Shown here piece by piece: positions 5,879-33,598 of a stretch of DNA of 64,000 bases (position 1 is the stretch's first letter; the number at the start of each line of letters is the position of its first letter). The DNA is from Desmonostoc vinosum HA7617-LM4 (GTDB lineage Bacteria; Cyanobacteriota; Cyanobacteriia; Cyanobacteriales; Nostocaceae): positions 151,136 to 215,135 of the forward strand of contig JAHHHC010000004.1 in NCBI GenBank assembly GCA_019359515.1, in the 5' to 3' direction. Made by a program: the position numbers and the translations under genes. The notes below the pieces were generated by a model. The model was not told the origin of the DNA. It made no database searches and saw only the letters and a list, made by a program, of their open reading frames with translations.

Positions 5879-7345
5879 TTGCTCGTAATGACTCTGGCTG
5901 AAACTCCAAACAACAAGAATTCTAGCAATCCTTTTCTTACCCTCAACTACGAACCTGCCTTAGAATCTCTAGGCAATGACTACTATGACGAAGTTGTGGC
6001 GGCGGAATTTCCTCAACACATCTTACGTTGGCGCAACAATGCACTGTTACCTCGTTTGGGGTTAGATTCCCAAACAGTCACAGACGAAGATTTCATCACA
6101 GCCTTTGGCAAATTTCAAGAGCGCAAACCCTTATTAGCACTACGTTACCACGGCTATCAATTTGGTGAATATAATTCACGCTTGGGTGATGGTAGAGGCT
6201 TTCTCTACGGACAAGTACGCGCTGTTGATGGCGAACTATACGATTTTGGCACAAAAGGTTCTGGGAGAACGCCCTACTCTCGTGGTGGTGATGGAATGCT
6301 AACACTCAAGGGTGGGGTACGGGAAGTTCTGGCAGCGGAAGCATTACACTACTTGGGAGTACGCACTTCCCGCTGTCTCAGCATGATTGAAACAGGTTTA
6401 TCACTGTGGCGTGGAGATGAACCTTCACCAACCCGTTCATCTGTGATGATCAGAATGAGTATGTCACACATTCGCTTTGGTACTTTTGAGCGATTGCATT
6501 TTTTTCAGCGTCCAGATTTGACTAAAAAGCTGCTAGACCATGTAATTGAGCAATATTACCAAGATCTCAACACCGAAAAAGATAAGTATGCTCTGTTTTA
6601 TGCAGAATTAGTGAAACGAATTGCCAAATTAGTAGCACAATGGATGGCAGTTGGCTTTTGTCATGCGGTTCTTAATACCGACAATATGTCAATTACCGGA
6701 GAAAGCTTTGACTATGGCCCTTATGCGTTTATTCCTACTTATGACCCATATTTTATAGCTGCATATTTTGATTATTATGGACGCTATTGTTACAGTCAGC
6801 AACCAAGTATTTGTCAGTTAAATTTAGAAATGCTCCAGGAACCTTTGAAAGCGGTGATTGATAAAGGGGATTTGGAGGCAGGATTAGCTAGCTTTCATCA
6901 GGATTATCATGCTGAGTACAAGGCTTTGATGTTGAAAAAGTTAGGCTTTATAGAGTTGCAACATCCACAAGCTGATGAACTTTTGCATCTAACGATCGCA
7001 TTTTTGCAAGAAAGCCAAGTTGGCTATCATCAGTTCTTTTATGAAATGGCTCGTACCTTTTCATCTAAATGGCGGGATGAACCAGCTTTTGTCTTGAATA
7101 ATTCAGATGTTGTGCCAGCATTGGGCACATCAGCAATTTTTGATAATTGGTGTATACTTTACCATAAAATTTTGAATGATTTTGACCCAGAAAATATGAA
7201 TGCGATCGCTCAAACTTTGGCAGAGCAAAATCCTCAAACAGCATTGTTAAGACCTATTATAGAATCTGTTTGGGATGCGATCGCTCAAGAAGATAACTGG
7301 CAATCTTTTTATGATTTATTACAGCGAATTCAATCTAAACAGTAG
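5879..7345 (+). CDS. selO: Protein adenylyltransferase SelO (YdiU/UPF0061)
   Basis: The conserved blocks [39 protein letters not shown] and [20 protein letters not shown] are all present. Confidence 0.85.
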
Positions 7346-7874
7346 AGGTTGTTTTAAAACTTTTGAGCGAATATAATTCGCTACTATACAAGCAAAGTCC
7401 GCCTCTGCGAATTAACACAAAATCAAAACTATTAAACCCACGTTCACCCTTAGCGATTTCGTACTTCTTTAGGGAAGCAAGCTAGCAAGAGCATCTCCGA
7501 CAAAACAAGGGTAGATGGATTTTGTCTGTGTAGACGCGATTTCTAATCGTTGATACTAAAAAACACCGCAGCAAGCACAATTAAACCTAGAAGTGCTAAC
7601 GGAACCCAAAGATTGGGGAGATCTGACAAACTCATAAGTAATCCAAGATATTTCTTTAATACTTATTATGCTAAGGTTTGGGATAAAATTTAACGAGTTC
7701 CGTAGGTTTAAGTCCCCCAGTTCTATAATCAGCAAGTTTTGTGTTGGGGTTGTCTTACAAAGTTGAGGCAGTGTGATCTTGGGGAGCCACTGCGTTGGAC
7801 GGGTTTCCCGGATTAAAGCAAGTGGCGTGGTTTCCCCCATGAACAACTGCGCGTTAAATCCCTATTACAAAACT

Positions 7875-7917
7875 TAATTACGAATTACGAATTACGAATT
7901 ACGAATTACGAATTATT
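7875..7917. repeat. Heptanucleotide tandem array (AATTACG)n, 5-6 copies, overlapping the stop codon of the LptD-like gene
   Basis: Direct reading: ttaattacgaattacgaattacgaattacgaattacgaattattt. Confidence 0.9.
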
Positions 7918-10457
7918 TAATTATTTTGTCGCACGCCACCCACAACTGGCTTCACCTCATCATTAGAAAAGGGATCGGTGCCACCAGTCCAGTTAAAGTC
8001 ACTAATGCGGATGCTAAAGCCGCCTAATTGCAACACCGGGTTATAACGCAAAGTGATGCCATAGGTACGACGATTATATTCTAATATGTAATCTGTACTA
8101 CTTTCTTCTCCTGTATCTAAGTTAATTGTTGTTTGAAAGCCTAAGCGAAATGGGCCGTAAATTTGCTGTGATATTCCAGCACTTAACACTCTATTGTCAA
8201 CGGAGCGATCAAACAAAAATGGGGATAATCCACTGTTTATACCTTGAGAATAGCGGATATTAAAAGCGGTGTAGTCGAAAAAGGGACGAGAAAAATGACC
8301 AACCTGTCCTTCTAAGCCAATCGTACCAATCAGAGTAGTTTGATTATCACCGTTAGTGTAATAGCTAGTAGTACCTGTAACGCCAGCGATCGCTTGTAAA
8401 TAAGGCACTACTGGATTAGGTGTATACCGTAATCCTTGGGTTGGCGTAGGTGGCAATGGTTTCCCGCGCCATAGTACTATGCCTGTACTCAAGGCGGCAC
8501 TAGCTTGTAAGCGACCTAGCGAAATGCGATCATTATCCCGATTCGTTTCTAGCAAGTCTAGACGATCTGTGTTGGCATTGATATACTGAGCGCCTCCTTG
8601 ATAGCTAAGATTAATACCGCTTTTACCCAAAGGAATCACAGGAGATGTGATGACGCCGCCAAGACTGCTTTGGACGGTTTGAAAACCAAGTGTGCCATTG
8701 TAGAGACGATCGCGGTAGCTATATTCTAAATTCAATGTATGGGGATTGCGATCGCCTAATAACTGGCGTAATCGCAGACTTGCCCGCAAATTTTCTTCGA
8801 CTTTGTTTAAGTCTAAGCTAGTTAAATCACCAGAACCTTCAATTACAGCTTGTGGACTCAAAACAACGTTTAACTTTGATTTCACCGCAAATAACGCTGC
8901 TATGTCATTAGGGCCTTCTTGCACAGCTTTTTGAGCTAAAAATTGCGGCGTAATTGTCCAGCGTGCCTGTTCTGTATTAATCGGCACAAAACCGCGCTCC
9001 AGAAATAAACCACCCCGCTTATCTCCATCAAAGCCAGGAGAGACTATTGCCGGGGTAACTTCCTGCTCTCGACGATCAATAGTCTGCCCATCTACGGGGA
9101 TAGGTACGGAATATTTTTGGTCAAATACTAAACGTTGTTGCTGTGTATTAACACGGTCTACCAAGGGAGACTCCCGCGTGAGAGTAACTTTAGATGCACG
9201 CAACTCTAATTCTGGGGGTGAAAAAGGGTCATTGGTAATTCGCACATCTCTGGCTTGGAAACCTCGCGGATAGAAGTCAATTGTTTGGGCTTCAAATCGT
9301 AGGCGATTAACTTCACCTCCTGTACTTGGCGGTGGGACATTGCTACCCTCAGTTCGTCCCGAGGTGATATTCAGTCCTCCAGGACTGCCGACACCTGAAG
9401 TGGGTTGATTGGCCCTGATGCGATCGCTTAGCGGACGCTTGGGTACTCCACCTGCTGTCACATCAGTTGGCAAGAAAGCAAAATCCGTTTGAGCGGAGGG
9501 TACATAAATCTCTCCTCTACCATTTTGCAGTTCGCCAGTATCTTGGACAAAGTTATAAGTAAAACGTTGTCCCCGCAGTACCTGATCGCCCCTTGTTAAG
9601 GCGACGTTGCCTTCTCCCACAGCAATCAAATTATCCAAACTCACTTGTAGGCGATCGGCATCCACAACCGCCTCATCAAATCGCACCACTACATTGCCTT
9701 CAGCCGTAATAATTCGCCGTTGCTCATCATACTCTTGCTTATCTGAAGTCACTTCTACCACTCTAGGTCTGACTGGCGGCACATTTGTACTAGGTGGTTG
9801 ACTTTGTGGCTGTTTTGTGGGTTGAGATTGTAGTGTAGATGCAGGTAGTTGAGCTTGTTGAATATCTGACTCAAATTCTATCGTGATGGGTGTTGAAGGT
9901 TGATTTGTCGATTTGCGAGACTTGAATTCTATAGTATTTTTGATCGACTGAGAATTTGCTGCATTATCTAAAGCAGATTCAGAGAGATTGATTTTTCCTG
10001 GAGATTGTTGTGCAGGATTATGACTTTGCTTTCTTTGTTGAGTTAATTTATTGGCTAATACTTGCGCCGCAGAGGCTGTCACCTCTTGCATAGGATTACC
10101 AATTGTCAGCGGTTCGCCCAATAATACAGCACTCCCAGAAGCAGTAAGGGGTGAAAATTCTGGTGATGTTTCTGAGGTACTTGGTAAAGATGGGGTTTCA
10201 GCAACTAATTGAGTTGTGTTGATAGGAGTTGATAGATGCCGATAATTCCCATTGTCGGTCGCACTTGCTAACTGAGGTAGATATTTTTGCTGCTGGGGTT
10301 TTTCTTGGCTTTTTGGCGTTTTAGTTTCAATAGTTGAATGGAAGTTGAATTTACCAGCAGATGCGATGGGATTTGCGGGTTGGGCAGGTTTAACGATAGA
10401 AGGAAAAGCAGGCGGCGGAACAGGATGAAGCATATCAGAGAAAAATCGAGCTAACAA
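7917..10457 (-). CDS. lptD: LptD/OstA-family outer-membrane protein with long Pro/Gln/Ser/Thr-rich N-terminal region
   Basis: The central block AEGNVVVRFDEAVVDADRLQVSLDNLIAVGEGNVALTRGDQVLRGQRFTYNF resembles the OstA N-terminal domain. The C-terminal ~450 aa is rich in alternating beta-strand-like segments. The N-terminal 250 aa is low complexity. Confidence 0.55.
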   Translation of the reverse strand: MLARFFSDMLHPVPPPAFPSIVKPAQPANPIASAGKFNFHSTIETKTPKSQEKPQQQKYLPQLASATDNGNYRHLSTPINTTQLVAETPSLPSTSETSPEFSPLTASGSAVLLGEPLTIGNPMQEVTASAAQVLANKLTQQRKQSHNPAQQSPGKINLSESALDNAANSQSIKNTIEFKSRKSTNQPSTPITIEFESDIQQAQLPASTLQSQPTKQPQSQPPSTNVPPVRPRVVEVTSDKQEYDEQRRIITAEGNVVVRFDEAVVDADRLQVSLDNLIAVGEGNVALTRGDQVLRGQRFTYNFVQDTGELQNGRGEIYVPSAQTDFAFLPTDVTAGGVPKRPLSDRIRANQPTSGVGSPGGLNITSGRTEGSNVPPPSTGGEVNRLRFEAQTIDFYPRGFQARDVRITNDPFSPPELELRASKVTLTRESPLVDRVNTQQQRLVFDQKYSVPIPVDGQTIDRREQEVTPAIVSPGFDGDKRGGLFLERGFVPINTEQARWTITPQFLAQKAVQEGPNDIAALFAVKSKLNVVLSPQAVIEGSGDLTSLDLNKVEENLRASLRLRQLLGDRNPHTLNLEYSYRDRLYNGTLGFQTVQSSLGGVITSPVIPLGKSGINLSYQGGAQYINANTDRLDLLETNRDNDRISLGRLQASAALSTGIVLWRGKPLPPTPTQGLRYTPNPVVPYLQAIAGVTGTTSYYTNGDNQTTLIGTIGLEGQVGHFSRPFFDYTAFNIRYSQGINSGLSPFLFDRSVDNRVLSAGISQQIYGPFRLGFQTTINLDTGEESSTDYILEYNRRTYGITLRYNPVLQLGGFSIRISDFNWTGGTDPFSNDEVKPVVGGVRQNN

Positions 10458-29537: not shown

Positions 29538-29640
29538 AAGACGCGGTGAGACAGCGAGTAAAGGAGGGTTTCCCTCCGCAGGCGACTGCGTTAGCGAGCT
29601 TGCGAGCGTCACCCGAAAGGGGACGCGGAGAATGACAAAT
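29538..29640. mobile_element. Internally deleted copy of repeat family C
   Basis: Segment 29540-29590 is identical to part of 24521-24571. The end ggggacgcggagaatgacaaat matches 24636-24657. Confidence 0.65.
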
Positions 29641-29685
29641 CCTTATTACCCCTAATCCCCACTATTTCCGGGGGCCCCCTTTCAA

Positions 29686-29775
29686 GGGTAGGTTTTTCAT
29701 ATTCCTATTTTTTCGTTCCGAAATCTTTCTCCGCGTCCCCGCGTCAACCAAAACGCGAAATCTAAAAACCTACCC
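29686..29775. mobile_element. MITE family D, intact copy with 12 bp terminal inverted repeats
   Basis: gggtaggtttttcat ... aaaaacctaccc. The same element occurs at 22385-22607 carrying a nested insertion. Confidence 0.7.
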
Positions 29776-29941
29776 ATAAGAGCCGGGGGCCCCGAGTTCC
29801 CTATTACTATTTTTTGTGTTACATTTAGTAGTAAGGTAGTAATACATCTGCCAAGCTTATGGTTTGGGTTCTGTATGTCCGACTGGTGCGCCAACCTTTG
29901 GATTGAGCGTATACCGCGAAGCAATGCGTCACTACTTTACC

Positions 29942-30013
29942 GTTTGATTAGCTCAGTGGCAGAGTATCCGAGAAGATCGGAAGGGCGTAGGTTCGAGTCC
30001 TACATCAAGCACC
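29942..30013 (+). tRNA. tRNA-like element 1: canonical acceptor/D/T arms but 5-nt anticodon loop (GAAGA); possibly a pseudo- or non-canonical tRNA
   Basis: Acceptor GTTTGAT/ATCAAGC, D arm TAGCTCAGTGGCAGAGT, T arm GTAGGTTCGAGTCCTAC. The anticodon arm TCCGA-GAAGA-TCGGA has a 5-nt loop; read as a 4 bp stem it gives a 7-nt loop AGAAGAT with G at position 33. Confidence 0.4.
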
Positions 30014-30014
30014 G

Positions 30015-30090
30015 TGTAAGTTAGCTCAATGGAAGAAGCAATCGACTCAGAATCGATATGTTGTAGGTTCAACTCCTACACTTACCACCA
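30015..30090 (+). tRNA. tRNA-like element 2: class I cloverleaf with anticodon CAG and encoded CCA
   Basis: Acceptor TGTAAGT/ACTTACC (1-72 mismatch), D arm GCT-CAATGGAAGA-AGC, anticodon arm ATCGA-CTCAGAA-TCGAT (U33, CAG, A37), 5-nt variable loop, T arm GTAGGTTCAACTCCTAC, then A and CCA. Confidence 0.5.
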
Positions 30091-30190
30091 ACCCTGTCCG
30101 GGTCAAAAGACACTACCCTGCTAAGGTAGCTTTAACACCAATGGTATGGGAGGACATCCCAATACGGTTCGACTCCGTTATTTTGCAAAC
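30091..30190 (+). ncRNA. tRNA-derived fragment/element 3 (T-arm plus GCU anticodon-like stem-loop, no complete cloverleaf)
   Basis: Contains CTACC-CTGCTAA-GGTAG and ACGGTTCGACTCCGT, but no pairing acceptor stem. Confidence 0.2.
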
Positions 30191-30506
30191 TCTGTGATGT
30201 GGGTGCTAGCTACTTTTAATCACGAAAGTGGTGAAAAGTAGCAACAGTGAAGAAGCTAGTGCGATCGCTTTTCTCTCTAACTTGAGTATGTCCCTTCGGT
30301 TTCTGTGTCTGGTTTCTCTACGGAGACTCTGGAAATGGTAAACCGAACGGCATATCTGAGCGCTATTTTCTGTTTCTAGATTGTCCAAGGGCAGTCTAGA
30401 GGAAATTAGCAATCTTAATCCAGTTTTAGAGACGCGATCGCCCGCAACTAAACTGTATGCACCTGCATTTGCAGAGTTTAAAAATTCAAAATATAATTTT
30501 TAATTC

Positions 30507-31085
30507 ATGCCAAAATTTGAAACCCAACTAGAAACTTTTTATGCTACAAATCGCCACGAATGGCGAGAATGGCTAGAGAAAAATTATCTATCTTCTGTTG
30601 GGATATGGCTAATTTATTACAAAGTCAAAAGTGGTAAACCCAGCATTCGATATAGCGAAGCAGTCAAAGAAGCTTTATGTTTTGGATGGATTGACAGTAA
30701 AGTTAAATCACTAGACGAATACCGTTATATGCAAATATTTACTCCTCGAAAACCGAAAAGCGTCTGGTCAAAATTGAATAAACAATATATCCAAGAACTT
30801 CTTGAGCAAGGCTTAATGACTGAGGCTGGTTTAGCAAAAATTGAGGTAGCAAAACAAGATAGTTCATGGAGTACATTAGATGCCATAGAAGCTTTAATTA
30901 TCCCAGATGACTTAAAGCAAGCACTAGCAGCAAACGAAGCAGCTAATCAATATTTTGAGTCATTAAGCAACTCATCCAAAAAAAATATCCTCTTTTGGAT
31001 TGACAGTGCTAAACGTCCAGAGACAAGATGCAAACGAATTGAGAAAACTATCAATTCAGCAGCACAGAACGAAAATCCTCAGTGA
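30507..31085 (+). CDS. YdeI/OmpD-associated family protein
   Basis: W..WLE.N..SS.GIWL.Y.K..SG.PSI.Y.EAV.EALCFGWIDS pattern and C-terminal DUF1801-like region. Confidence 0.6.
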   Translation: MPKFETQLETFYATNRHEWREWLEKNYLSSVGIWLIYYKVKSGKPSIRYSEAVKEALCFGWIDSKVKSLDEYRYMQIFTPRKPKSVWSKLNKQYIQELLEQGLMTEAGLAKIEVAKQDSSWSTLDAIEALIIPDDLKQALAANEAANQYFESLSNSSKKNILFWIDSAKRPETRCKRIEKTINSAAQNENPQ

Positions 31086-31237: not shown

Positions 31238-32764
31238 ATGTGGAAAACTTTTTACATTAAACCTAACGAAATCGGAATCTTATATCACCGCAGTGATTTT
31301 AAGAAAGTTTTACAGCCAGGGACTTACACTTATTTGGGTTGGCATTGGCGAGTAAAAGTTTATGATCTCAACCAACCTGAAGCTAAGATTGAAAACTTAG
31401 AATTATTATTGCGAAATCATAATTCAGAGTTACAGCAATATCTATTAGTTGTACAAACAACATTCAATCAAGCGGCTTTAGTGCGCTTGGGTCAAAATTG
31501 GGTGAGTGTAATACCAAATCAATTAAGAGCTTTTTGGCGTGGTTTTATTGATGTACAATGTCATCTTTTCAACTTGCAAGAAAGCTTGGAATTGCCTACT
31601 GAGTTCGTGCAGCAATTACGAGGAATTGCCTTGAATGGAATCAAGAAGTTCCAAATCTCTGAATATGAGATTGGTTTGCTGTATGTGCAAAATAACTTTG
31701 TGCGACCATTAGAACCAAATGAGTATGCTTTTTGGTCTGTGAATCGGGATGTTACAGTACGGACTCTCAGCAAAATTGTACCCAATCCAGATTTTCCTTT
31801 AGAAGATGTTTTGATCGAACGACATCCTGAGTTTGTCGCGGCTTACTGTCAAACAGTACAATTGCTCAATCAGCAAGTTGCGATCGCCAGGTATCAAGGT
31901 AAAGTCATTTCTATTCTTGGGCCATGCAGTCGCAAGCTGTTCTGGCAAGGTGTGGAAGTAGAGGTGATTGATATCAGCACTGATGCTAAGTTACCATCTC
32001 GCTTAATCGCTGAGTTAGTCTCAGGTTTACCAGAGGTTCTAGTTTTGAGCCGTAGTTCTTTGCATGTTTGCGAAGTTCCCGCACAACACTTGGGATTACT
32101 TTATATCAATCAAGAATTTCAAACACAACTGCAACCAGGAATGCACGCTTGGTGGACGTTTGGACGTTCCTTACAAACAGAAGTCTTTGACTTGCGCCAG
32201 CAAATTGTTGAAGTGTCTGGTCAAGACATGCTTTCCAAGGATAAAGTACCATTGCGCTTAAATCTAACCACTAGTTTCCGCATCATCGACCCCCTAAGAG
32301 CTAAAAACGGGTTATCAAATATTACCAGCTACTTATATAAAGAAGCTCAGTTTGCTTTGCGTGGTGCTGTTGGAGAAAGAACTCTAGATGCTTTGCTGGA
32401 GGATAAAAGCGCGATTGATAGAAGTATTTTTGACTACATTCGCCAGAAAACCGTAGATTATGGCATTGAAATCGATTCGGTTGGGGTTAAGGATATTATT
32501 CTCCCTGGTGAGATTAAGACGATTTTGAGCAAGGTAGTGGAAGCTGAAAAAGTAGCTCAAGCAAATGTAATCCGTCGTCGTGAGGAAACAGCAGCTACCC
32601 GCAGTATGTTAAACACCGCTAAAGTGATGGAAGATAACCCCGTCGCGTTGCGTTTGAAGGAGTTGGAAGTGCTGGAAAGAATTGCCGAGAAGATTGAGAA
32701 AATTCAAGTCAACGGCAGCTTGGATAGTATTTTGACCGAGTTAATTCGGATTAATCGCGAATAA
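31238..32764 (+). CDS. SPFH/band-7 (slipin-like) domain protein with three N-terminal repeat modules
   Basis: The C-terminus KDIILPGEIKTILSKVVEAEKVAQANVIRRREETAATRSM..LKELEVLERIA is SPFH-like. The N-terminal 300 aa contains three EIG(I/L)LY....F...L.PG.Y.(Y/W) repeats. Confidence 0.65.
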   Translation: MWKTFYIKPNEIGILYHRSDFKKVLQPGTYTYLGWHWRVKVYDLNQPEAKIENLELLLRNHNSELQQYLLVVQTTFNQAALVRLGQNWVSVIPNQLRAFWRGFIDVQCHLFNLQESLELPTEFVQQLRGIALNGIKKFQISEYEIGLLYVQNNFVRPLEPNEYAFWSVNRDVTVRTLSKIVPNPDFPLEDVLIERHPEFVAAYCQTVQLLNQQVAIARYQGKVISILGPCSRKLFWQGVEVEVIDISTDAKLPSRLIAELVSGLPEVLVLSRSSLHVCEVPAQHLGLLYINQEFQTQLQPGMHAWWTFGRSLQTEVFDLRQQIVEVSGQDMLSKDKVPLRLNLTTSFRIIDPLRAKNGLSNITSYLYKEAQFALRGAVGERTLDALLEDKSAIDRSIFDYIRQKTVDYGIEIDSVGVKDIILPGEIKTILSKVVEAEKVAQANVIRRREETAATRSMLNTAKVMEDNPVALRLKELEVLERIAEKIEKIQVNGSLDSILTELIRINRE

Positions 32765-32800: not shown

Positions 32801-33598
32801 TTACTCGGACATAAGCAAATTATTCGGGTCGATACCTTGAGATTGCAAATAAGCAATCAGTCGGTCTTTTTGCTGGCGTTCTTGTTCGGCGCGTTGGTGT
32901 TCTTGTTCGGCGCGTTGGCGTTCTTGTTCAGCGCGTTGGCGTTCTTGTTCAATCTGTTCAACAGCCCAAGGTAACAAATTGCCAGCTTTATCCCACCAGC
33001 GTAACCAATAACCTGTTCGAGCTTCTTTTGCACCTTGCCAAGTTCCCAAAAATAAGCCTAGTGTATCAATCCAATGGCGACCATTTTCATCAGGCTGCTT
33101 TAACTCATAGCGTCCGTTTTCCAGCTGGTGAAATTCCAATAAACCACCATCTGGTTCAAAAATTATGTAAATGGGAACCTGCAAAATTTGCTCGTAGAAA
33201 AACCATTTTCCCGGTGGATAAGTTCGCTTAGCAGAATATTCTCCACCATCGCTGTCGGATAGAAACTCCATCACAACGGTGGGGATATCACCTTCTAAAT
33301 TGGGTGTGTAACTTTTACGATTACTAACAACTTTGTTAACTGATGGAACATAAACCCAGTCTGGTGCTTTAATAATAAATTGTCCGTTGACAGTCGCGCA
33401 AAGACCAAAATTTGAAGCTATCAACATCTGCGGCTGGATTAATCCATTAATTTCTAAGCTTTCACGCAAAGCACCAGCCAAAATTGGCTGACCAGTATTC
33501 TCCACTGGTTCATCCTCTAGTTTAAAATCGTCGGGTAATGCTTCCCAAGAGATGACCAGTTCAGTTGATGATTTGGCTGCACTGAGTTGGGTTGCCAT
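32801..33598 (-). CDS. Uma2-family (DUF820, PD-(D/E)XK) endonuclease with C-terminal (EQERQRA)n repeat
   Basis: LEFHQLENGRY..ELKQPDENGRHWIDTLGLFLGTW block is typical of cyanobacterial Uma2 proteins. Confidence 0.65.
   Translation of the reverse strand: MATQLSAAKSSTELVISWEALPDDFKLEDEPVENTGQPILAGALRESLEINGLIQPQMLIASNFGLCATVNGQFIIKAPDWVYVPSVNKVVSNRKSYTPNLEGDIPTVVMEFLSDSDGGEYSAKRTYPPGKWFFYEQILQVPIYIIFEPDGGLLEFHQLENGRYELKQPDENGRHWIDTLGLFLGTWQGAKEARTGYWLRWWDKAGNLLPWAVEQIEQERQRAEQERQRAEQEHQRAEQERQQKDRLIAYLQSQGIDPNNLLMSE
32876..32945. repeat. 21 bp tandem repeat x3 inside the Uma2 gene (encodes EQERQRA heptads)
   Basis: gcgttggtgttcttgttcggc / gcgttggcgttcttgttcagc / gcgttggcgttcttgttcaat. Confidence 0.85.

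Follow-up and report, generated by a model that had tools for sequence, protein, structure and literature searches.

What are the three tRNA-like sequences that stand head to tail around positions 29942 to 30190 of a 64,000-nucleotide (nt) stretch of the cyanobacterium Desmonostoc vinosum HA7617-LM4 (contig JAHHHC010000004.1, positions 151,136 to 215,135, forward strand; this whole stretch is referred to as the window)? A first-pass annotation, made from the letters alone, described a tandem array of atypical tRNA-like elements and likened it to the tRNA gene arrays of cyanobacteria. Comparison with related loci gives a different picture. The elements are tRNA-shaped domains, competent for the L form and devoid of a conserved anticodon, which sit within a conserved structured RNA, in synteny with a slipin gene and, in some lineages, adjacent to a reverse transcriptase (RT) gene. 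The reading that we favour, and regard as probable on balance, is that they are non-decoding domains of one long, structured, retron-like non-coding RNA (ncRNA) that would be processed via these tRNA-shaped units. The elements themselves are the following:

29942..30013, plus strand: tRNA-like element 1, a full cloverleaf with a 5-nt "anticodon" loop GAAGA and a 3' end A-CC instead of CCA.
30015..30090, plus strand: tRNA-like element 2, a cloverleaf of class I whose loop reads CUCAGAA; U1 and C72 are mismatched, and ACCA is encoded.
30113..30129, plus strand: anticodon-like hairpin of element 3, CTACC-CTGCTAA-GGTAG.
30147-30161 and 30164-30178, plus strand: variable-arm-like hairpin and T-arm-like hairpin (ACGG-TTCGACT-CCGT) of element 3, respectively.

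ARAGORN predicts two genes here, 29942-30013 as "Leu aag" and 30015-30090 as "Leu cag", and no further tRNA in the 64-kb window. With the Rfam tRNA model RF00005 (gathering score 29 bits), element 1 obtains 54.0 and element 2 55.6 bits, with E values of ~1e-9 for the 64-kb window. Both programs and the fold thus bear out the first-pass view of two non-canonical tRNA-shaped elements followed by a remnant, the covariance model placing elements 1 and 2 far above threshold and element 3 below it. Element 1 combines a good acceptor stem (GTTTGAT/ATCAAGC), a regular D arm and a T arm (GTAGG-TTCGAGT-CCTAC) with an anticodon arm, TCCGA-GAAGA-TCGGA, of 5 bp and 5 nt, and its loop is indeed 2 nt short as had been annotated. 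It lacks the 7-nt loop with U33 of a decoding tRNA, and would present a G at position 33 if the closing A-U pair opened. Element 2, correctly described as a class I molecule with a CAG triplet, its own CCA and no long variable arm, does have the 7-nt loop with U33 and a purine at 37, together with a 5-nt variable region, the encoded ACCA, and two mismatches, U1·C72 and C13·A22, that had been overlooked. It is not a leucine tRNA, since the long variable arm is absent. Three bases (CCG) lie between the discriminator of element 1 and base 1 of element 2, and element 3 begins immediately past the CCA of element 2. Element 3 stays below threshold on every tRNA model (the best being tRNA-Sec, 15.8 bits, E = 6) and has a fold z-score of -0.12; besides the T-arm-like and anticodon-like hairpins seen at first, it contains a third, variable-arm-like one.

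The three elements do not stand alone: they occupy the middle of a conserved non-coding module of ~650 nt (window ~29816-30478), which runs from a promoter box through a structured 5' leader and one to three tRNA-like units to a linker and a 3' domain of ~290 nt. In the window its remaining parts are:

29816..29825, plus strand: promoter-like box P1 (GTGTTACATT, extended -10-like TG-n-TACATT), with a conserved consensus and a putative promoter role.
29826..29941, plus strand: 5' leader domain, an outer helix around two hairpins, with motifs CCGACTGGTGCG and CGTATACCGC.
30091..30112, plus strand: linker ACCCTGTCCGGGTCAAAAGACA after the CCA, conserved in A-type modules.
30189..30478, plus strand: 3' domain, rod-like, ~290 nt, with terminal helix ACTCTGTGATGTGGGTG ... 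CACCTGCATTTGCAGAGTT; a candidate retron-type (msr-msd-like) ncRNA.

The P1 consensus, GTG(C/T)TA(C/A)A(T/A)T in the alignment, is found at a constant distance before the leader in nearly all copies; lacking a -35 element, it was not picked up by a simple sigma-70 scan. Consensus folding with RNAalifold supports both flanking domains. Of the 27 pairs that it yields for the leader (19 copies), 10 show compensatory double changes, as for example GUGCG/CGUAU, which becomes GCACG/CGUGU in Gloeothece PCC 7424. For the 3' domain (12 copies) it yields 76 pairs, 29 with compensatory double changes, in a nested fold whose two ends are joined by a 17-18-bp helix that also shows compensatory changes. An nhmmer profile of the 3' domain matches every module copy with 163-249 bits. 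The linker is copied along with each additional tRNA-like unit in two loci (L050 and L058). The window module belongs to the A type, as shown by its elements 1-3, by the linker of that type and by an additional hairpin within the 3' domain. Two HIP1 palindromes (GCGATCGC), a hallmark of cyanobacterial DNA, occur within the 3' domain, at 30262 and 30434, and GC-rich hairpin repeats (e.g. GGGGGCCCCGAG) occupy 29590-29810, between the ppa gene and the promoter box. A search of Rfam 15 with gathering and E-value thresholds, over the window and 21 related loci, returned RF00005 matches only and none for the leader or the 3' domain. No description of the module RNA was found in the searchable literature, nor anything on retrons together with SPFH proteins or with tRNA-like elements, and the locus is missing from the supplement of a survey of conserved sRNAs in heterocystous cyanobacteria.

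The module is present in about 25 cyanobacterial loci from several orders. A scan of species-representative genomes for a class I tRNA(CAG) pattern gave 27 loci; in a marine cyanobacterial metagenome-assembled genome (L027), homology extended beyond the units to ~120 nt upstream and to a downstream hairpin. This CAG-based pattern of element 2 missed all Nostocales, because the orthologues do not share the CAG loop; the equivalent region of Anabaena sp. FACHB-709, upstream of ydeI, was reached via the orthologue of that gene. A metagenome scan with the two leader motifs, which is independent of the tRNA parts, added 20 more loci. Further copies lie in Gloeothece PCC 7424, Chroococcidiopsis PCC 7203 (L057), Nostoc sp. 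T09 (L058) and Nostoc sp. C052 (L060). The number of units ranges from none, in the decayed remnant of Calothrix sp. NIES-2098 (L034), up to 3. Nostoc C052, Nostoc T09 and the L041 group carry two module copies, A, which ends 20-60 nt ahead of the RT start codon, and B, which lies between the RT and the slipin gene. Locus L045 (3848-5520) has two complete tandem modules upstream of one slipin gene, with GGGCATT/GGTCATC heptamer repeats between them. The Calothrix NIES-2098 copy (2214-2500) has neither the promoter box nor tRNA-like units, and its 3' domain is mostly deleted; the module RNA can therefore be lost.

Alignment of equivalent units reveals what selection has retained. In element 1 (13 copies) 97.8% of the cells are paired and 10 of the 21 pairs show double changes, a result reached by 0/500 shuffles, slid controls being 25-39% paired. 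In element 2 (10 copies) the corresponding values are 93.8% and 6 of 21 pairs, with slid controls at 31-44%; here 6/500 shuffles reach the double-change count and 0/500 the percentage paired. The sequences of the D loop, T loop and acceptor are nearly invariant, and the anticodon stem co-varies as well. The anticodon loop behaves quite differently. In 8 of 18 lineages the loop of element 1 has 4-5 nt (GAAGA, GUUGA, AAUUA, UGUAU, CUAAA, CGCGA, CUUU), while the remaining lineages present CAU, GUU, CUU, GGA or CUA; counting all equivalent copies, short loops span 3-5 nt. For element 2 the triplet is CAG in the window and L027, GUU in Anabaena and others, and otherwise CAU, UAU, AAU or UUU, and the slipin-proximal "B-type" copies have an invariable loop, UGUAUCG, whose closure lengthens the stem and leaves a triloop. 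Between the window and Anabaena the anticodon stem of element 2 is identical (AUCGA/UCGAU) and all three anticodon positions differ (CAG vs GUU). Copies with different triplets share one acceptor stem. In 8 of 10 copies of element 2, positions 1 and 72 do not pair; the encoded NCCA is kept in most copies, being absent from the clade formed by L037, L049, L051 and L052.

Element 3 shows the same tendency in its anticodon-like hairpin, with a conserved stem, one compensatory change in Anabaena (UACU/AGUA), and a loop that keeps CU...AA around a central GCU, GCA, GUC, UCC, UUU, CAG or GUA. Its variable-arm-like and T-arm-like hairpins are conserved in L049, L051 and L052 and are degenerate or absent in Anabaena, L037, L060 and L041.

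Across equivalent copies there is thus neither the conserved anticodon nor the matching identity expected of a decoding tRNA. Because stems are kept while the anticodon loops vary freely, these alignments indicate a conserved function that is independent of any particular anticodon and is not decoding with a fixed identity. The identities "Phe GAA" and "Leu CAG" suggested by the first-pass annotation are meaningless for these elements, since the triplet differs among orthologous and paralogous copies, some of which have no anticodon loop at all. Nor does a sequencing or assembly error explain the short loop. Loops of 4-5 nt recur at the position of element 1 in the complete genomes of Gloeothece PCC 7424 and Chroococcidiopsis PCC 7203 and in several metagenome lineages, and judged by this recurrence the short loop is a natural state. 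Equally, the notion of free-standing tRNA genes or mobile-element remnants gives way to that of domains of a larger, syntenic and conserved RNA. A T-box-like arrangement, in which the variable triplets would pair with a "specifier" in cis, was considered and rejected, the best column pairing in 4/9 copies, equal to permuted controls.

According to the favoured reading, the region would be transcribed as a single unit from P1 into an RNA comprising the 5' leader with its multi-helix junction, one to three units, the linker and the 3' domain with its long terminal helix. Selection preserves the anticodon stem as well as the acceptor, D and T arms, whereas the anticodon itself is not kept, and the units would therefore most likely act via the L-shape and the acceptor end. 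We propose that they serve as recognition and cleavage modules, with RNase P acting at their 5' ends and RNase Z or exonucleases at their 3' ends, so that cleavage would separate the leader, the units and the 3' domain from the primary transcript and define their ends. Such a processing role fits because conservation is limited to the parts read by RNase P, RNase Z and the CCA-adding enzyme, and because the units stand 0-5 nt apart and behave like cassettes, each extra unit bringing its own linker. Mitochondrial tRNA punctuation and the mascRNA of MALAT1 offer a parallel, in that a non-decoding tRNA shape, possibly cut by RNase P and RNase Z, sets the ends of flanking RNA, and in that conservation is here confined to what those enzymes read. 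Those systems are, however, eukaryotic or organellar, and the likeness would be a functional one only.

The second part of the favoured reading concerns the 3' domain, which we take to be a retron template or to derive from a retron-type ncRNA. An RT gene of 347-368 codons adjoins the module in L040/L044, the L041 group, Chroococcidiopsis PCC 7203, Nostoc T09 and Nostoc C052, and a 22-residue C-terminal RT remnant survives in Gloeothece PCC 7424. These RTs match the PADLOC profile RT_XIII with 492-496 bits (E values of ~1e-149, such as 3e-149) and contain the NAXXH, YADD and VTG motifs. The gap between the end of the 3' domain and the RT ATG measures ~20 nt in L060 and L041 and ~60 nt in L058, so that the domain occupies the place of the retron msr-msd RNA. 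With its 17-18-bp terminal helix, it provides in these three loci what retrons have upstream of the RT, namely a structured RNA with terminal inverted repeats (a1/a2).

Type XIII retrons (RT clade 10) include Mx162, Mx65, Sa163 and Ne144 (Mestre et al. 2020, PMC7736814), an account that mentions neither tRNA nor SPFH in connection with retrons. The likeness to them consists in the RT scores, of up to 496 bits, and motifs, in the structured RNA with long terminal inverted repeats ending just before the RT start, and in a largely vertical and syntenic inheritance such as has been reported for type XIII. In contrast, the RT is short here and lacks the N-terminal extension of the 469-residue profile; the partner is a slipin, with or without YdeI, instead of WH-SWIM (cluster 114) and HEAT/ARM proteins; the RNA has a 5' leader and tRNA-like units; and it persists without an adjacent RT in many genomes, the window included. 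Long (469-residue) relatives of these RTs are found separately, in canonical type XIII loci whose partners are WGR/HEAT proteins and which have no tRNA-like units (L059, a Nostocales genome). The short RT, the tRNA-bearing RNA and the slipin therefore make up a distinct variant, and the locus is best classified as a retron-related system whose ncRNA bears tRNA-shaped domains, whose constant partner is a slipin and whose RT is absent from the window. In the window lineage the RT would have been lost or lie elsewhere, leaving the RNA directly ahead of ydeI and the slipin gene.

Several results weigh against this reading. No RT was found by tblastn in the 64-kb window or in the other RT-less loci, and because the RT is absent within 64 kb the window locus is not a complete retron. 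The module RNA is equally well conserved in RT-less and RT-linked loci, which therefore requires either an RT acting in trans or a function independent of it. Chroococcidiopsis PCC 7203 and L040 have a single module, which follows the RT instead of preceding it. No conserved branching G could be assigned from the alignment of the 3' domain, and neither blastn nor nhmmer detected similarity between this domain and the canonical cyanobacterial type XIII ncRNA (L059). As for processing, an encoded CCA may hinder RNase Z, and processing alone explains neither the CU..AA kept at loop positions 32, 33, 37 and 38 around a changing triplet nor the maintained 1:72 mismatch.

These last two features keep alive another model, in which the units would be tRNA mimics, serving as baits or sensors for anticodon nucleases, modification enzymes or toxins; when such a bait is damaged or bound, translational or phage stress would be coupled to the RNA, the RT and the slipin, and the loops would evolve in an arms race. 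C32, U33, A37 and A38 are kept while the triplet changes between close relatives (CAG vs GUU on an identical stem), and the hairpin of element 3 follows an equal pattern. GUU, GUA, GUC, CUU, UUU and CAU, all of which are found among the loops, are anticodons targeted by known anticodon nucleases. The RNA-repair ligase gene rtcB and a spare-tRNA array belong to the same regulon as the neighbouring genes (see below), and retrons are defence systems (PMC7736814). However, many lineages have 3-5-nt loops or the fixed, closed UGUAUCG loop, which would be bait for no known nuclease; no nuclease or toxin partner was found, slipin and YdeI having no PADLOC match; and the sample of triplets is small. 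We consider this model unlikely, although it accounts for features that cleavage does not.

Next to the module lie two genes, of which the slipin gene is its constant neighbour:

30507..31085, plus strand: ydeI-like gene, orthologue of Anabaena alr0739 (Pfam OmdA; 81% identical to the Anabaena protein).
31238..32764, plus strand: slipin/SPFH (Band 7) gene of 508 codons, orthologue of alr0740 (Pfam Band_7; stomatin-like in PDB).

The slipin gene follows the leader by 0.6-1.6 kb in all 14 metagenome loci with enough sequence (tblastn), and is likewise downstream in Gloeothece PCC 7424, Chroococcidiopsis PCC 7203, Nostoc T09 and Nostoc C052. Its product is ~80% identical across orders. The C-terminal half is stomatin-like, and three repeats of N-terminal type are recognisable (IKPNEIGILY at residue 7, ISEYEIGLLY at 140 and VPAQHLGLLY at 281); an N-terminal membrane segment is not obvious, and the protein may be soluble and multi-SPFH. 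The ydeI gene precedes the slipin gene in the window, in Anabaena and in Calothrix NIES-2098, there beside the decayed remnant, and in none of the other loci. That slipin or YdeI might be known defence proteins was rejected for want of a PADLOC match. On the ppa side no synteny is shared, the upstream neighbours differing among genomes with the RT as the one recurrent exception. Among other neighbours, a gene for a Uma2-family endonuclease comes after the slipin gene in the window (32801-33598, minus strand) and in Nostoc C052 (7621-8190), GNAT acetyltransferase genes follow it in Nostoc T09 (7004-8599), and a ParE toxin gene precedes the RT in Chroococcidiopsis PCC 7203 (786-1076).

Expression data exist for the Anabaena orthologues. 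In a trcR deletion mutant alr0739 (YdeI) is up 71-fold and alr0740 (slipin) 42-fold, and TrcR binds the alr0739 promoter in an electrophoretic mobility shift assay, the extent of the fragment being unstated (PMC10272220). The tRNA L-array, rtcB, rsgA and rimK are members of the TrcR regulon too, and antibiotics that target the ribosome induce the regulon (PMC10272220); with erythromycin, alr0739 and alr0740 rise along with the L-array and rtcB (PMC9938897). GTAGTAT repeats, which resemble the TrcR operator and the L-array promoter, are found after the module and before ydeI or the slipin gene in most relatives (e.g. L031 2437-2455, L034 2436-2455, L060 5745-5765), and are absent at window 30479-30506. 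P1 itself carries GTAGTAA/GTAATAC words in some lineages only. Because the GTAGTAT box is missing and the ydeI ATG lies 28 nt past the end of the 3' domain, ydeI and the slipin gene of the window may be transcribed through the module.

This arrangement bears on a further alternative, namely that the whole module is a cis-regulatory 5' leader of the next gene (ydeI-slipin in the window, the RT elsewhere), without reverse transcription and with the units in a sensing or structural role. The possible read-through just described would suit it, as would the copies ahead of both RT and slipin genes in Nostoc C052 and T09 and the undiminished conservation of the RNA where no RT adjoins. However, most genomes have the separate, promoter-like box with GTAGTAT repeats and 200-280 nt between module and slipin gene, and transcripts from that promoter would therefore exclude the module. 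Moreover, Calothrix NIES-2098 keeps both the box and ydeI-slipin intact despite its decayed module, and neither a terminator/anti-terminator pair nor a structure sequestering the ribosome-binding site was found. A leader function of this kind appears distinctly improbable to us.

The link to cyanobacterial tRNA arrays made in the first-pass annotation stands in part. The best plasmid match of element 2 is the tRNA-Asn(GUU) of an L-array, with 79% identity over 58 nt, and the neighbouring genes share the TrcR regulon; what does not stand is the mini-array itself, which is a larger RNA. An L-array comprises up to 43 genes, with supernumerary tRNAs for many anticodons, and spreads by horizontal transfer; the true L-arrays seen here on Calothrix and Nostoc plasmids have 15-21 genes. 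The two share tRNA-shaped genes placed head to tail a few bases apart, some of them non-canonical, and repression of the neighbour-gene orthologues by TrcR with induction by translation inhibitors alongside the array. In addition, the module of the marine clade begins similarly to L-array transcripts (TGTAGTGAGG). Unlike an L-array, the module has 1-3 units in a fixed chromosomal place, where synteny with the slipin gene holds across orders; it keeps no constant anticodon, and the loop is often too short; and the units are set between two other structured RNA domains. An L-array remnant as the main explanation was rejected, as collinearity does not extend beyond generic tRNA positions.

We hold it to be very unlikely that the units are merely decaying, functionless pseudogenes of real tRNA genes or a horizontally acquired L-array fragment. 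The similarity to the array tRNA-Asn would agree with such an origin, the copies in L049 and L051 resemble a normal tRNA-Asn(GUU), truncation affects element 1 in Anabaena and L039 and element 2 in L036, L038 and L047, and element 3 is clearly degenerate. Yet the stems are 94-98% paired, with compensatory changes across cyanobacterial orders, and only the loops change; about 25 loci agree in position and flanks; and an intact T loop, D loop and acceptor stem would not be expected of pseudogenes over such time.

It is still less credible that they are working tRNAs with unusual decoding under translational stress, a constant body carrying differing anticodons to yield supernumerary or mistranslating species. 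The 7-nt loops do have the canonical CU-NNN-AA form, element 2 bears CCA, and for 23 of 26 L-array tRNAs a study detected the molecule and its aminoacylation in vivo (PMC8421152). Against this, element 1 of the window and many other copies have 3-5-nt loops, one acceptor stem for all triplets allows no consistent identity set, Leu and Ser anticodons come without a long variable arm, and a G3·U70 pair is present in 2 of 10 copies only. A 1:72 mismatch, as seen in element 2, is moreover a known anti-determinant for EF-Tu.

Finally, NCCA is encoded in most copies of element 2, whereas cyanobacterial chromosomal tRNA genes usually have no encoded CCA, and an RT is adjacent in relatives, but the idea that element 2 and its CCA form a tRNA-like tag at the 3' end, where the RT would start cDNA after processing, as in the Mauriceville retroplasmid of Neurospora, can be set aside as scarcely plausible, given that this RT belongs to a retron clade that primes from the 2'-OH of an internal G (PMC7736814), that the units lie 5' of the domain in msr-msd position and that the L037/L049/L051/L052 clade has no CCA. 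What the locus has in common with the Mauriceville plasmid and with the tRNA-like structures of turnip yellow mosaic virus and brome mosaic virus is a tRNA-like fold with CCA in a transcript tied to an RNA-copying polymerase; it differs in its retron-type RT and in the place of the units, which stand inside the RNA, 5' of the candidate template.

The scan for class I tRNA(CAG) also gave some side observations. Such genes, with a short variable arm, occur in unrelated phyla, either ~1 kb past long tRNA arrays, at whose edges they were seen in L008, L012, L015, L016 and L025, or alone (L006, L009, L010, L013, L018-L023, L028 and L029). In Aphanothece (L016) the gene is followed by an open reading frame resembling ribosomal protein L7/L12. 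In L002, L003, L012 and L016, ARAGORN reports a "tRNA-Leu" of 75-80 nt in long arrays, apparently without a long variable arm. Neither blastn nor nhmmer detected similarity between the 3' domain and the class I tRNA(CAG) loci of other phyla.

Regarding annotation, calls of "tRNA-Leu(CAG)", "tRNA-Asn" or "tRNA-Ile(UAU)" and the like mislead here and make tRNA gene sets look larger than they are. Beyond this, a broader and tentative proposal, to which we assign a rather low probability, combines the preferred retron-like RNA with bait-like units: a new cyanobacterial retron-like system would consist of a short, type XIII-related RT, a ~650-nt ncRNA with tRNA-shaped bait domains and a soluble triple-repeat slipin, wired to TrcR, in which RNA and slipin would work even without the RT. 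If this system is real, its fast-evolving baits would report tRNA-directed attack by anticodon nucleases, toxins or phage. The module would enlarge the inventory of cyanobacterial RNAs by a large structured one that is widespread, passed on vertically and so far undescribed, and the model strain Anabaena PCC 7120 carries it directly upstream of alr0739/alr0740. It would also bring together three previously unlinked subjects: reverse transcription of the retron type, proteins of the SPFH/slipin kind, and the translational-stress regulon of TrcR, under whose control the L-array and RtcB stand as well. Domains of tRNA shape within a retron-type RNA would be a new design principle.

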